59,043 nt of DNA from Candidatus Parcubacteria bacterium (GTDB lineage: Bacteria; Patescibacteriota; Patescibacteriia; Patescibacteriales; UBA12075): the NCBI GenBank assembly GCA_002869165.1, contig PKTK01000009.1, positions 1 to 59,043 of the forward strand. Direction: 5' to 3'. The position numbers were made by a program, and so were the translations under genes. The notes below the pieces were generated by a model that saw only the letters and a program-made list of their open reading frames with translations, was not told where the DNA came from and searched no databases. Below are positions 43,275-50,941 of the stretch, one piece after another; position 1 is the stretch's first letter, and each line of letters starts with the position of its first letter.

Positions 43275-43303
43275 TTGACAAGTGTCAAAACTTGTGCTAA
43301 GTT
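43275..43303 (+). promoter_or_regulatory. sigma70 promoter for the candidate ncRNA
   Basis: TTGACA (43275-43280), 17-bp spacer, TGnTAAGTT (43298-43303). Confidence 0.7.
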
Positions 43304-43309
43304 TGCATA

Positions 43310-43538
43310 ATTGTTAAGCGTTGATTAAAGAACTGCTTGCCAAAAGGAACTGGTTAAATTTTTTTCCTCCTTGTAAATTTAACCTTTATCTTCTTTGGCA
43401 GGCTGTTCTCTAATCAAACAAAAATACCTGATTTAACGTCTAGGAGTAGGCGATTATAGTTCTTACCCTCCTTGAGCTATCTTTTGCCTTTACAAGGTTA
43501 TCCTTGGCTTCTAGATGTTAAGTTGGGTATTTTTTTTG
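43310..43538 (+). ncRNA. Candidate ~225-nt ncRNA: two long hairpins each displaying CCUCCUU (anti-SD) in the apical loop
   Basis: Hairpin 1 43321-43417; hairpin 2 43422-43532 with an uninterrupted 26-bp stem including 6 G.U pairs, followed by a U-run; no ORF. Confidence 0.7.
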
Positions 43539-43732
43539 AAATTACAAATATATAAATCAGCTACAAATACAATAAATATAATTAAAGATATTATTTTTGT
43601 TATTACAGATGATTGGAAACGATAATTTAAGAAACAGTTTTGGAATATAAAGAAGCCCAAAGATAAATAATTAATTTATAAAAATAACTCGGTCAAAAGT
43701 AGACCGAGTTTTTGTTTAAAGGAGTTTTAGTT

Positions 43733-43948
43733 TTAAGAAATTCTTAATATTCTTCGAATTAGTTTTCCTAGTTTTTTGTGTTGCTTTCTTGATAAGTAGC
43801 TAAGTCCATCTGGGTGATCTGTAAGAATAACCATGTTTGGATAAAGATTTTCCTCTCGCCACTTTCTGATGTATTCCAAGTCAATTTCACTTGGATCTTG
43901 ACCGCTTTCTCTAATGGCATTATCTAATGCTTCCGAAAATGTTGGCAT
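43733..43948 (-). CDS. Small hypothetical protein, SD-led
   Basis: AAGGAGAG upstream of ATG 43948 (MPTFSEALD..); hairpin 43686-43710 downstream. Confidence 0.65.
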   Translation of the reverse strand: MPTFSEALDNAIRESGQDPSEIDLEYIRKWREENLYPNMVILTDHPDGLSYLSRKQHKKLGKLIRRILRIS

Positions 43949-43979
43949 TTTTTCTCTCCTTATTTTAAAAAAGAACAAA

Positions 43980-44555
43980 TTATTCAAGATGCTTGGTGCA
44001 ATTACTAGTGATCATTTTTGGTTTAGCGTTTTTTTCTATTTCAAAAATACTTACAGCCGTGTTTTTTTGGTGTTTAAAGCTTTTATTCATTCTTTCACAG
44101 GGGACATTATTGAGTACTGTTAAAAAAGCTTTTTTTGTTCCCCCGTGACAAACAACGACTACGGTTTTGTCAGAGTGTTTTTTGTTAATTTCATCTATAA
44201 ATGATTTAACTCGTTTGCAAATCGATTCATTAGTTTCTATATAAGTTGGCATAGTTTCCCATGACCAGTTTTCTGGTATTTTTTTTCCTTCCAGTTCTCC
44301 AAACGATCTTTCACGAATTCTTTTATCAAGTATAAGCTTAAGCTGAGGATGGTGTTTTATTATTTTTTTGGACGTATCAATTGCTCTTTTGAGATCACTA
44401 GAATAGACAAAATCAATTTTTTCATTTTTTAGTCTTTGACCAAGTTTTTTTGCTTGTTTTTTTCCTTCATCTGATAATTTTCCTGGTTTTTGTCCCTGGA
44501 TTACTCTATTGACATTGTCTACAGTTTCTCCATGTCTAGTGATAATTAATTTCAT
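43980..44555 (-). CDS. Histidine phosphatase family protein (phosphoglycerate mutase-like)
   Basis: LIITRHGET, SSDLKRA, RERSFG and VVCHGG motifs. Confidence 0.9.
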   Translation of the reverse strand: MKLIITRHGETVDNVNRVIQGQKPGKLSDEGKKQAKKLGQRLKNEKIDFVYSSDLKRAIDTSKKIIKHHPQLKLILDKRIRERSFGELEGKKIPENWSWETMPTYIETNESICKRVKSFIDEINKKHSDKTVVVVCHGGTKKAFLTVLNNVPCERMNKSFKHQKNTAVSIFEIEKNAKPKMITSNCTKHLE

Positions 44556-44558
44556 ATT

Positions 44559-48286: not shown

Positions 48287-48634
48287 TTTATTAAAACACA
48301 AAATTAGCCATTTTTTGGCTTATCTTAATAATTTTTTTCACAAAAAAACAATTTTTTAGCTAAAATTGTTTGTTATTTTAGTGAAAAAAGATATTTATAA
48401 ACTATTGCTTTGATTATACAATTATTAATTATAAAATTCAAGCCTATTTTGTTTAGAATAAATTCACAAAATAATACGTAATATTAAATATAAAATAACA
48501 ATAATAAATTTTTGCTTATTTTATGTTTAATGGTAGATATTCACTTGATTTTTATAATATAAAGTGTTATAGTTTTTAGATATAAATATAATTTTTGAAA
48601 CAAATTCAATGAAAACTATTAAAAAAAGGCATTT

Positions 48635-49231
48635 TTGCCTTATTTTAGTATTTTTCACAATAAAACCATGCTAAAAAATTTCTTTCTATTTTTATTTGAA
48701 TTAGTTAAAATAGTTGTAATTTCACTCGTTATTATTATACCGATTAGATATTTTTTGATACAACCTTTTTATGTAAAAGGAGCTTCAATGGAGCCAAATT
48801 TTTATGATCATGAATATTTAATAATCGATGAGATTACTTATAGGTTTGAAGAACCAAACAGAGGAGATATAATTGTTTTTAGATATCCAAGAAATCCTCA
48901 AGAGTATTATATAAAGCGATTGATTGGTTTACCTGGTGAAACTGTTCAAATCATGGATGGCGAGGTGATAATATATAACGATGAGAATATCAAAGGTTAT
49001 ATTTTGGAAGAAAAATATTTACCAGATGATTTAAAAACATATTCAAATACTGAAGACAAGATTATCTTGGGAGATAATGAGTACTTTGTTTTGGGGGATA
49101 ATCGTAATTCAAGCAAAGATTCAAGAAGTTTTGGCCCAGTTGACAAAAGTTTCATTACTGGTAGAGTACTTTTGCGAGGATGGCCTTTTGACAGGGTAAC
49201 TCTTTTTAATGACCCTGTTTATGAAGAGTAA
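48635..49231 (+). CDS. lepB: Signal peptidase I (probable start ATG 48668)
   Basis: GASMEPN (catalytic Ser), IKRLIGLPGE (Lys) and GDNRNSSKDSR motifs. Confidence 0.95.
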   Translation: MPYFSIFHNKTMLKNFFLFLFELVKIVVISLVIIIPIRYFLIQPFYVKGASMEPNFYDHEYLIIDEITYRFEEPNRGDIIVFRYPRNPQEYYIKRLIGLPGETVQIMDGEVIIYNDENIKGYILEEKYLPDDLKTYSNTEDKIILGDNEYFVLGDNRNSSKDSRSFGPVDKSFITGRVLLRGWPFDRVTLFNDPVYEE

Positions 49232-49249
49232 TATTAAATAGACAAAAAA

Positions 49250-50668
49250 ATGCCTAGAAAAAAAGCAAATACAACCAAAAAGGCGGCTACTAATAAGCCA
49301 AAAACTAGTAAATCAGTTAAGTCAAAAAGATTGCATCGACTTAGAGGCATGAAAGATGTTTTATTTTCTGAATCAAAATATTGGGATTTAGTTGAAAGAA
49401 AAGCCAAGGATTTAGCCAATGTTTACGGTTTTCAAAAAATAGCAACTCCAATTCTTGAATTTAGTGATCTATATGTAAAATCAACTGGAAAAGAAACTGA
49501 TATTGTATCTAAAGAAATGTATGCTTTTGTTGACAAAGGAGGTGACAAAGTTACTTTACGTCCTGAAGCAACTCCAGGAGCAGTTAGAGCTTATATAGAA
49601 CACGGTATGTTTAATCTTCCCCAACCAGTTAAGATGTTTTGGATGGGCCCACTCTTTAGACATGAAAAACCTCAGTCAGGTAGACTCAGACAACACACTC
49701 AGTTTGATTTAGAGATTTTCGGTGAAGAAGGACCAGTAGCTGATACCCAGCTTATATTAATTGCTTACAATTTCTTTTCTGAATTGCAAATCAATGTTCA
49801 GATTCAGATTAATTCAATTGGTTGTCCCGAATGTAGAAAAGATTATATTGAAAAATTATCCGCCTTTTACAAGGAAAGAGGCAAGAGATCAAAACTTTGT
49901 AATGACTGTAAGAAACGTTTTACCAAAAATCCGTTGAGGCTACTTGATTGTAAAGAAGAATCTTGTTTGGAGGTACGTGAAGACGCTCCACAGATTGTTG
50001 ACTTTTTGTGTGATGATTGCCGTGAACATTTTATCAAAGTTCTAGAGTATTTAGATGAATTAGAAATTCCATACAATTTAAATCCATTTTTAGTTAGAGG
50101 CCTTGATTATTACGTAAAAACTGTATTTGAAATAACTCCAATTGACGAAGAAGGGCTTGATCCAAGTCAACAAAAGAGACAAATTTCTTTAGGTGGTGGA
50201 GGTAGATATGATGGATTGGTTGAATTAATGGGAGGAAGACCAACCTCAGGGTGTGGTTTTGGAATTGGACTTGAAAGAGTGATTATGAAAATAAAAGAAA
50301 AAAGTATTCCTTTGAAAGAAGATAATGAAAATATTATTTTTTTAGCTCAATTGGGTGAGCAATCAAAACGAAAAATGATGACTTTGTTTGAAGAATTGAG
50401 AAAAGCAGGCTACAATGTCAGACAGTCTTTTACAAAAGATAGTTTAAAAAATCAACTTGAAGAAGCAAACAGAGTAAATGCTAAGTTGGTCTTGATTTTG
50501 GGACAAAAGGAATTACTTGATGGAACTGTAATGGTTAGAGATATGGAACTTGGAACTCAAGAAGTAATTGACTTCAAGAAGTTATATCCAGAATTAAACA
50601 AAAGACTTGAAGTGAAGGAAATGAAGTTGGAAAATTCAGCTACTGAAAGTATCGCTGAAGAAAAATAA
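49250..50668 (+). CDS. hisS: Histidine-tRNA ligase
   Basis: LRPEATPG, FRHEKPQSGRLRQH, VRGLDYY and GGGRYDGL motifs. Confidence 0.97.
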   Translation: MPRKKANTTKKAATNKPKTSKSVKSKRLHRLRGMKDVLFSESKYWDLVERKAKDLANVYGFQKIATPILEFSDLYVKSTGKETDIVSKEMYAFVDKGGDKVTLRPEATPGAVRAYIEHGMFNLPQPVKMFWMGPLFRHEKPQSGRLRQHTQFDLEIFGEEGPVADTQLILIAYNFFSELQINVQIQINSIGCPECRKDYIEKLSAFYKERGKRSKLCNDCKKRFTKNPLRLLDCKEESCLEVREDAPQIVDFLCDDCREHFIKVLEYLDELEIPYNLNPFLVRGLDYYVKTVFEITPIDEEGLDPSQQKRQISLGGGGRYDGLVELMGGRPTSGCGFGIGLERVIMKIKEKSIPLKEDNENIIFLAQLGEQSKRKMMTLFEELRKAGYNVRQSFTKDSLKNQLEEANRVNAKLVLILGQKELLDGTVMVRDMELGTQEVIDFKKLYPELNKRLEVKEMKLENSATESIAEEK

Positions 50669-50689
50669 ATAATAATTATAAAATACTAG

Positions 50690-50703
50690 AAAGGAAGGTG
50701 GAG
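50690..50703 (+). promoter_or_regulatory. Composite Shine-Dalgarno of rpsU
   Basis: AAAGGA-AGGTG-GAG immediately before GTG 50708. Confidence 0.7.
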
Positions 50704-50707
50704 TAAC

Positions 50708-50941
50708 GTGGAATTTAAAAGAAAAAAGAACGAAAGTTTTGAAGCATTTTTGAGAAGATTTAACAAGACTTTGATTAAATCAAGAAAATTGCATGAGGTA
50801 AGACAAAACAAATACTTAACTCCAAAACCAAACAAGAACAAGAAGAAGATTCAAGCTTTGAATAGCATGAAAATTCGTGAAAAAAATGAATATTTGAAAA
50901 AAATTGGCAGAATCAAAGATGAGCCAAGAAATAGATGGTAA
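50708..50941 (+). CDS. rpsU: 30S ribosomal protein bS21
   Basis: K.NESFEAFLRRF pattern, very basic 77 aa, upstream of a YqeY gene (conserved rpsU-yqeY pairing). Confidence 0.8.
   Translation: MEFKRKKNESFEAFLRRFNKTLIKSRKLHEVRQNKYLTPKPNKNKKKIQALNSMKIREKNEYLKKIGRIKDEPRNRW

Follow-up and report, generated by a model that had tools for sequence, protein, structure and literature searches.

An extended Shine-Dalgarno sequence at rpsU and a structured RNA family with anti-Shine-Dalgarno loops in a Shine-Dalgarno-poor genome of the candidate phyla radiation

Translational autoregulation of ribosomal protein bS21, the product of rpsU, through an extended Shine-Dalgarno (SD) sequence has been described in Bacteroidota, among them Flavobacterium johnsoniae (PMC9976891, PMC13000453, PMC13000457, PMC7797042). 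The extended SD, with 9-13 bp and -14 to -21 kcal/mol, is characteristic of rpsU in Bacteroidota and is required for autoregulation by ribosomes that lack bS21 (PMC9976891); its helix excludes bS21 sterically (PMC13000453). Sequestration of the anti-SD in Bacteroidia has a signature that comprises Tyr54 and a less basic C-terminal domain in bS21, Phe50, Asn56 and other residues in bS18, and the C-terminal helix of bS6. Elsewhere, small RNAs (sRNAs) carry an anti-SD seed, as do 6C RNA in Actinobacteria and RsaE/RoxS in Bacillota. Among such trans-acting sRNAs, cuckoo/CcsR and alpha-r14/NfeR1 have CCUCCUCCC loops (PMC4615179, PMC3927594, PMC10746234). The P6 substructure of the OLE RNA is bound by bS21 through an anti-SD mimic (PMC12054373). 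Here we analyse positions 43,275 to 50,941 of a 59,043-nt contig of a Candidatus Parcubacteria bacterium (PKTK01000009.1 of assembly GCA_002869165.1; the whole contig is referred to as the window), which belongs to the candidate phyla radiation (CPR, Patescibacteria). The interval harbors an rpsU gene preceded by an extended SD and a gene for a structured RNA whose two apical loops copy the anti-SD of 16S rRNA. The reading that we prefer, with a probability of about 0.5, is that this SD-poor CPR genome carries two separate translation-control devices, an autoregulated rpsU and a trans-acting anti-SD RNA.

The rpsU gene (50708..50941, + strand) encodes a bS21 of 77 residues from a GTG start codon. 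It is a single-copy gene, and no rpsU paralogue was found in the genome. Its extended SD, CUAGAAAGG-A-AGGUG, i.e. CTAGAAAGGAAGGTG, is located at 50686..50700 on the + strand. With the 3' tail of the genome's own 16S rRNA (AUCACCUCCUUUCUAG, paired part CACCUCCUUUCUAG), the leader pairs all 14 terminal nucleotides and leaves one bulged base; the pairs are not consecutive and are arranged as 9 + 5 bp around a strictly conserved 1-nt bulge. At -21.3 kcal/mol, this duplex is the strongest among the ~1300 gene starts of the genome, where all SD counts rest on our own gene calls (1306 open reading frames, ORFs). The motif CUAGAAAGG-N-AGGUG, in which N is A, C or U, is kept in seven further genomes (L054, L055, L057, L059, L061, L163 and L166; L numbers designate related loci, C numbers contigs of the present genome). 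Its flanks are unconserved, and its distance to the start codon ranges between 5 and 11 nt. A first-pass annotation of this DNA had assigned a strong SD to rpsU and had likened the gene to its autoregulated counterpart in Bacteroidia; both points are borne out, the first by the rank and conservation of the duplex and the second by the match to the extended-SD hallmark (PMC9976891, PMC13000453).

Because this signature is specific, conserved and in agreement with that of Bacteroidota, we lean, by analogy, towards an rpsU that is autoregulated by bS21 as in Flavobacterium. The leader would form a 14-bp helix, with one bulge, with the entire 16S 3' tail, and ribosomes lacking bS21 would initiate preferentially on rpsU and thereby restore bS21, since a helix of this length cannot coexist with bound bS21 in Flavobacterium. 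Our literature search returned no paper reporting an extended rpsU SD or a signature of bS21 autoregulation for CPR.

The bS21 of the window scores 19.4 bits against the Pfam family Ribosomal_S21, under the 27-bit cut-off. Its identity was confirmed by bS21 chains from the PDB and by 83 homologues, several of which are named S21 and most of which have no precomputed Pfam match. The published absence of bS21 from Parcubacteria (PMC9297842) may thus be, in part, a detection artefact. The C-terminus of the protein carries a conserved, lineage-specific motif, EYLKKIG, with an invariant-like Tyr. The bS6 protein comprises 166 residues with a C-terminal extension of ~65 residues; the F. johnsoniae chains did not align with the bS21 of the window. 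A perfect palindromic hairpin, CAAGCTAGCAATTATGCTAGCTTG, is found directly 3' of rpsU at 50960-50984 and is devoid of a T-run.

The second element is a structured small RNA of ~230 nt with two anti-SD loops (43312..43540, + strand), located between dprA and orf71. The promoter that precedes it was read from the sequence (43276..43304, +) and consists of TTGACA, 17 nt and an extended -10, TGcTAAGTT. It was missed by a consensus scanner because TAAGTT fits 3 of 6 positions only; the same layout, TTGACN-17-(TGn)TAAnnT, also precedes the RNA in L054, L124, L137, L164, L165 and L166. The plus strand folds with a minimum free energy of -82 kcal/mol (z = -9.8) and the minus strand with -60 kcal/mol, the former being stronger because many G-U pairs fit the plus strand only. 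Hairpin 1 (43321..43418, +) ends in an apical loop at 43362-43374 (UUUUCCUCCUUGU) with CCUCCUUG at 43366-43373. Hairpin 2 (43420..43534, +) has its apical loop at 43464-43474 (UUACCCUCCUU), with CCCUCCUUG at 43466-43474, and stands on a conserved basal stem, CUAGRAG/CUYCUAG, followed by a U8 run at 43530-43537. The heptamer CCUCCUU, which also forms part of the 16S anti-SD, is thus displayed twice, at 43366-43372 in the apical loop of hairpin 1 and at 43468-43474 in that of hairpin 2. The genome has a single copy of the RNA, and a scan of all intergenic CCUCC sites of the 1.43-Mb sequence revealed no other stable hairpin with CCUCC in its loop. No Rfam family matched the RNA, either at the gathering score or at E values up to 10, and its homologous loci showed no match by covariance model (CM) to the described families of anti-SD-seed sRNAs.

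The RNA belongs to a family of eight members, each located in the dprA/pth interval. A CM built from the single sequence retrieved a homologue in L054, a genome whose bS21 is 79% identical to that of the window; this homologue occupies the same dprA/pth gap behind the same promoter and has identical loop cores and different stems. A scan of GTDB genomes for the two-loop pattern returned 98 places, approximately the chance expectation, of which two, in L137 and L124, are real (E = 4e-16 and 3e-12; order topA-dprA-RNA-pth-der). In all four contigs fetched by their Pth homologues (L163-L166), the dprA/pth gap likewise contains the RNA, in convergent orientation to pth. They include a scaffold whose Pth is named Candidatus Falkowbacteria, on which the window's order yqeY-rpsU-hisS-lepB / lytR-der-pth-gap-dprA-topA is also present. 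No RNA match was found in 39 metagenome loci identified by DprA (32-49% identity). A BLAST search of 60 relatives gave short matches only, corresponding to reverse-complemented SD-plus-start regions or low complexity, and these were rejected as homologues.

The stems of this family covary. Among four full-length sequences aligned by CM, with one spurious minus-strand alignment row left out, 94% of the pair cells are canonical, a share that falls to 36-46% on sliding the partner column and to 75% or less on shuffling, and both sides have changed in a compensatory manner in 57 of the 82 pairs. The changes include G-U intermediates. For hairpin 2, an independent MAFFT alignment of 8 sequences, analysed with RNAalifold, supports 25 basal pairs, of which 16 show compensatory changes. 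Column identity is 36-56% in the stems and 86-100% in the loops: the core of loop 1, YCCUCCUUG, is invariant in 7/7 homologues, and the invariant part of loop 2 is CCCUCCU(U/A). Only one stem segment per hairpin is conserved, UUGCC/GGCAA in hairpin 1 and CUAGRAG/CUYCUAG in hairpin 2, the other stems covarying freely; these segments may be protein-binding or RNase III sites. Judged by these alignments, the structured RNA family is real and new, and the invariant parts of its loops copy the anti-SD. The dedicated RNA with anti-SD loops that had been proposed is therefore upheld by its fold, by the CCUCCUU in both loops and by the eight syntenic members.

Both elements reside in a genome that hardly uses SDs. 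The genome comprises 15 contigs (1.43 Mb, ~33% G+C), of which the window is contig C10, and its 16S rRNA ends in the canonical GGAUCACCUCCUUUCUAG, so that the canonical anti-SD is kept. Judged by gene content and synteny, it is a CPR genome near the Falkowbacteria. About 82% of genes start without an SD and about 5-9% are SD-led. An SD match of at least 6 nt precedes 8.9% of the starts and 2.7% of internal ATGs, with the same figure for the 291 genes whose starts are unambiguous, and a minority of genes account for a peak of SD 4-mers between -12 and -8. Duplex energies of -12 kcal/mol or stronger were found for 57 genes as compared to 16 mock windows, and SDs exceed mock at every threshold. 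Starts without an SD are rich in A between -6 and -2 and again at -11/-10. No SD was detected in the ribosomal-protein operon from rpsL to secY, and within the interval dprA, pth, der, lytR, lepB, hisS and yqeY are SD-less, orf71 and rpsU being SD-led; the same pattern is observed at the relatives' loci. The earlier statement that core genes lack an SD is consistent with these figures.

Its companion, that accessory cassettes are SD-led, stands in part. SD-led genes are shorter (median 159 vs 257 residues, p = 8e-7), mostly hypothetical and in some cases located in variable gaps; their third-position G+C is slightly higher (p = 5e-4), and their clustering is weak and marginal (p = 0.055). A Pfam family was assigned to 8 of the 20 strongest SD-led genes (12 had none), the families being type IV pilin, type IV secretion system (T4SS) pilin, cupin, radical-SAM, methyltransferase, LemA and MFS transporter. 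Size-matched SD-less controls had a family in 11/20, including L14, TrmD, TsaE and ATP synthase epsilon. We rejected the notion that SD-led genes are the unannotated ones, as the difference between 8/20 and 11/20 is not significant. Since pilin genes and glmS, which has a canonical SD, are SD-led too, the term accessory describes a fair tendency of the SD-led genes and not a rule.

After rpsU, the strongest SDs of the genome belong to a type IV pilin (N_methyl) gene and a T4SS/TrbC-type pilin gene (C4 62267-62743, +; C1 23161-23625, -). These near-complete extended SDs reach the 3' terminal CUA of 16S rRNA (UAGAAAGGUGGUGA, -19.8 kcal/mol; AUAGAAUAGGGGGUGA, -19.1 kcal/mol), and the leader of the T4SS pilin is conserved in a relative (L061 425-868). 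Such very strong pilin SDs suggest ordinary SD use. In another relative, a sugar-modification operon of four genes (L164 830-4153), encoding a TylF-like methyltransferase, an aminotransferase, a GFO/IDH oxidoreductase and one unknown protein, is SD-led throughout, and the neighbouring core genes are SD-less.

In the two-device reading that we prefer, the ~230-nt RNA would be transcribed from its own strong promoter and act in trans, its loops pairing through the anti-SD core CCUCCUU with the GGAGG-containing initiation regions of the SD-led 5-9% of genes in competition with the 30S subunit. That the RNA pairs with SDs is deduced from its complementarity to them, and a functional tie between this RNA and rpsU is likewise conjectural. 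Predicted duplexes between the loops and canonical SD-led starts reach -16 to -20 kcal/mol, stronger than those of the same leaders with the 16S tail. With rpsU, the predicted values are -9.4 and -11.5 kcal/mol, and the bulged rpsU leader is thus expected to be a poor target. Of the two actions that had been suggested for the RNA, muting SD-led mRNAs or pulling bS21 away, the predicted pairing fits the former better.

Several observations weigh against this reading. Any C/U-rich loop scores well on SDs, and loop and 16S pairing correlate at 0.8, which makes the target prediction nearly circular; for this reason we hold that the chances are even that the RNA pairs with SD regions like the known anti-SD-seed sRNAs. 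The idea that the bulge insulates rpsU from the RNA was rejected, because 16S and loop pairing are penalised equally, by ~3.8 kcal/mol, and the bulge does not discriminate between the readings. SDs are enriched, unlike in Flavobacteriales, so anti-SD sequestration may not apply and ordinary ribosomes may read the SDs. Finally, the conserved stem segments hint at a protein partner.

It is possible, though on the unlikely side, that the traits are independent of each other. Low SD use would then be the initiation style of a lineage with fully SD-competent ribosomes, SD-led genes would be recent acquisitions or highly expressed, the long rpsU SD would provide strong expression only, and the RNA would have few specific targets or an unrelated role, e.g. 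one tied to pth or dprA. The positive enrichment of SDs is consistent with this account, as are the near-complete extended SDs of the pilin genes, one of which is kept in L061, the canonical SD of glmS and the Pfam-match rates, which do not clearly differ between SD-led and SD-less genes. However, rpsU alone among the ribosomal-protein genes is SD-led, and Bacteroidota autoregulate precisely this gene in that manner (PMC9976891). The RNA itself can be argued in either direction: the most conserved feature of its context is its fixed position convergent with pth, but its invariant parts are the anti-SD copies, and in the window two genes separate it from pth, showing that adjacency is not obligatory.

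A second alternative, which we consider unlikely, is that the RNA is a protein decoy, in line with the suggestion of the first-pass annotation that it pulls bS21 away. Either its loops or the purine/pyrimidine basal stem of hairpin 2 would capture unbound bS21, or a different protein with affinity for the 16S tail, and in this way determine what share of ribosomes is free of bS21. The basal stem of hairpin 2, CUAGRAG/CUYCUAG, is unusually conserved and resembles the 5' arm of the rpsU SD paired with the 16S 3' end, CUAGAAAGG/CCUUUCUAG; this resemblance is nevertheless short (7 bp) and includes the palindrome CUAG, and the conserved segment of hairpin 1, UUGCC/GGCAA, is unlike the anti-SD. OLE RNA provides a precedent, as bS21 binds to its mimic of an anti-SD/SD helix (PMC12054373), but that mimic is a duplex, whereas the anti-SD copies in our RNA are single-stranded in loops. 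The lineage-specific C-terminal EYLKKIG of CPR bS21 and the joint presence of the RNA and an SD-led rpsU in 4/4 genomes are also in favor of a decoy.

The same co-occurrence bears on the integrated switch put forward in the first-pass annotation, according to which bS21-replete ribosomes ignore SDs and bS21-depleted ones translate rpsU and the accessory cassettes. The three underlying traits are real and common to relatives, and in all four genomes in which both loci are visible (window, L054, L163 and L166), the RNA is accompanied by the bulged extended SD of rpsU. In contrast, ribosomes blind to SDs find no support, as SDs are enriched (57 genes vs 16 mock windows at -12 kcal/mol). The boldest version would have Falkowbacteria-like CPR run two translation channels, one for the SD-less core and a small SD-dependent one for rpsU, pilins and short genes of the flexible genome. 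Two factors would gate the latter jointly, namely how far bS21 occupies the 30S platform and an abundant, free RNA copy of the anti-SD. We regard this as distinctly unlikely, and a switch joining the RNA and rpsU as hypothetical to the same degree. If it were true, the RNA with its two loops would either trap SD-led mRNAs or titrate away bS21, the reading of newly acquired or surface genes would be timed at the level of translation, and the specialised-ribosome circuit of Flavobacterium would have gained an RNA arm. The weakest alternative, that there is no RNA and that the hairpins are a DNA-level element near dprA, either a REP/MITE-like repeat or a protein-binding palindrome, is highly improbable: REP-like TGTCAT hairpin elements do occur in the genome (C11 20464), but the present element is single-copy, its plus-strand fold is 22 kcal/mol stronger owing to G-U pairs, its promoter is conserved and a U-run is present, it covaries through G-U intermediates, and conservation lies in the loops and not in the stems.

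The genes surrounding the two elements are arranged as follows. The 5' neighbour of the RNA promoter is the SD-less dprA (42126-43223, -). On the other side, a bidirectional intrinsic terminator detected by a terminator scan (43686..43710, both strands) separates the RNA from the convergent orf71 (43733..43948, -), a small gene led by the SD AAGGAG and without a Pfam family. A His-phosphatase gene follows at 43980-44555; together with orf71 it forms an insertion between the RNA and pth, and the same gap is without orf71 in L054, L137, L124 and L166. The SD-less core gene pth (44559..45143, -) is convergent with the RNA and is the neighbour kept in relatives. The SD-less core gene hisS (49250..50668, +) belongs to the conserved lepB-hisS-rpsU-yqeY block; in L137 synteny differs, and rpsU was not reached by the locus look-up. 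Just beyond the interval, orf244 (52091..52825, +) encodes a transglutaminase-like secreted protein and is SD-led (AAAGGAGG, -12.2 kcal/mol). It occupies a variable gap between yqeY and HSP20, which is empty or otherwise filled in L054, L055, L057 and L061.

The window is 99.92% identical to the JGI contig L053. Over 18.3 kb the two differ at 15 positions, mostly G/T (or C/A) swaps. The genes der and LCP/lytR are each broken by an in-frame stop in the window (46468 and 47517, both T in the window and G in L053) and intact in L053, and EF-G is also split on contig C7 of the genome (513 + 143 residues). The der and lytR splits look like sequencing or assembly errors rather than pseudogenes. Three records among the relatives, L137, L161 and L124 (GCA_964547855.1 and a sister metagenome-assembled genome), are titled 'uncultured Gammaproteobacteria'. 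They share the gene order topA-dprA-RNA-pth-der-lytR with the CPR relatives, and by eye their proteins resemble those of CPR; the label is probably wrong. L161 also carries cas1-cas2-cas4.

These observations take the sequence signature of bS21 autoregulation beyond Bacteroidota into the CPR, and add a new, well-supported RNA family whose invariant loops copy the anti-SD and which would work like a known kind of sRNA. They bear on why SD-poor bacteria retain an anti-SD and on whether access to it is regulated. A link between the RNA, the rpsU leader and bS21 is open to direct assay, each of the three being small and easy to produce by synthesis.

Among the described systems, the rpsU of Bacteroidota is the closest to the rpsU device. 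In both cases the genome is SD-poor and has a canonical anti-SD, SD-less starts are A-rich upstream, and rpsU is the sole SD-bearing ribosomal-protein gene; here, two pilin genes come within 2 kcal/mol of it. The rpsU SD spans the whole 16S 3' tail, and its energy, about -21 kcal/mol, is inside the reported range of -14 to -21. The present case differs in phylum (CPR/Patescibacteria), in the conserved 1-nt bulge (9 + 5 bp, as opposed to 9-13 consecutive pairs) and in the RNA with anti-SD loops that accompanies rpsU. Unlike in Flavobacteriales, where SDs are generally absent or depleted below chance and rpsU is the sole SD gene, SDs are enriched over mock windows here, and 5-9% of other genes are SD-led.

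The RNA is reminiscent of cuckoo/CcsR and NfeR1. Like them, it is an independent gene that has a promoter and a terminator to itself, and it forms two hairpins, each with a C/U-rich anti-SD motif in the loop and predicted pairing to ribosome-binding sites. It shares no sequence or CM homology with them, its hairpins are far longer (~100 nt each), and its motif is an exact copy of 16S CCUCCUU. Unlike those sRNAs, it would address a small and defined class of genes, since its host hardly uses SDs. Like OLE, it is a noncoding RNA that reproduces its own species' anti-SD exactly and has bS21 as a plausible partner, and yqeY, reported as an unmapped OLE partner (PMC12054373), is located directly downstream of rpsU in the window. 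OLE differs in its 600-nt length, in its occurrence in Bacillota and in an anti-SD mimic that is paired to an SD-like strand, whereas the loops here are single-stranded, and there is no homology between the two RNAs.

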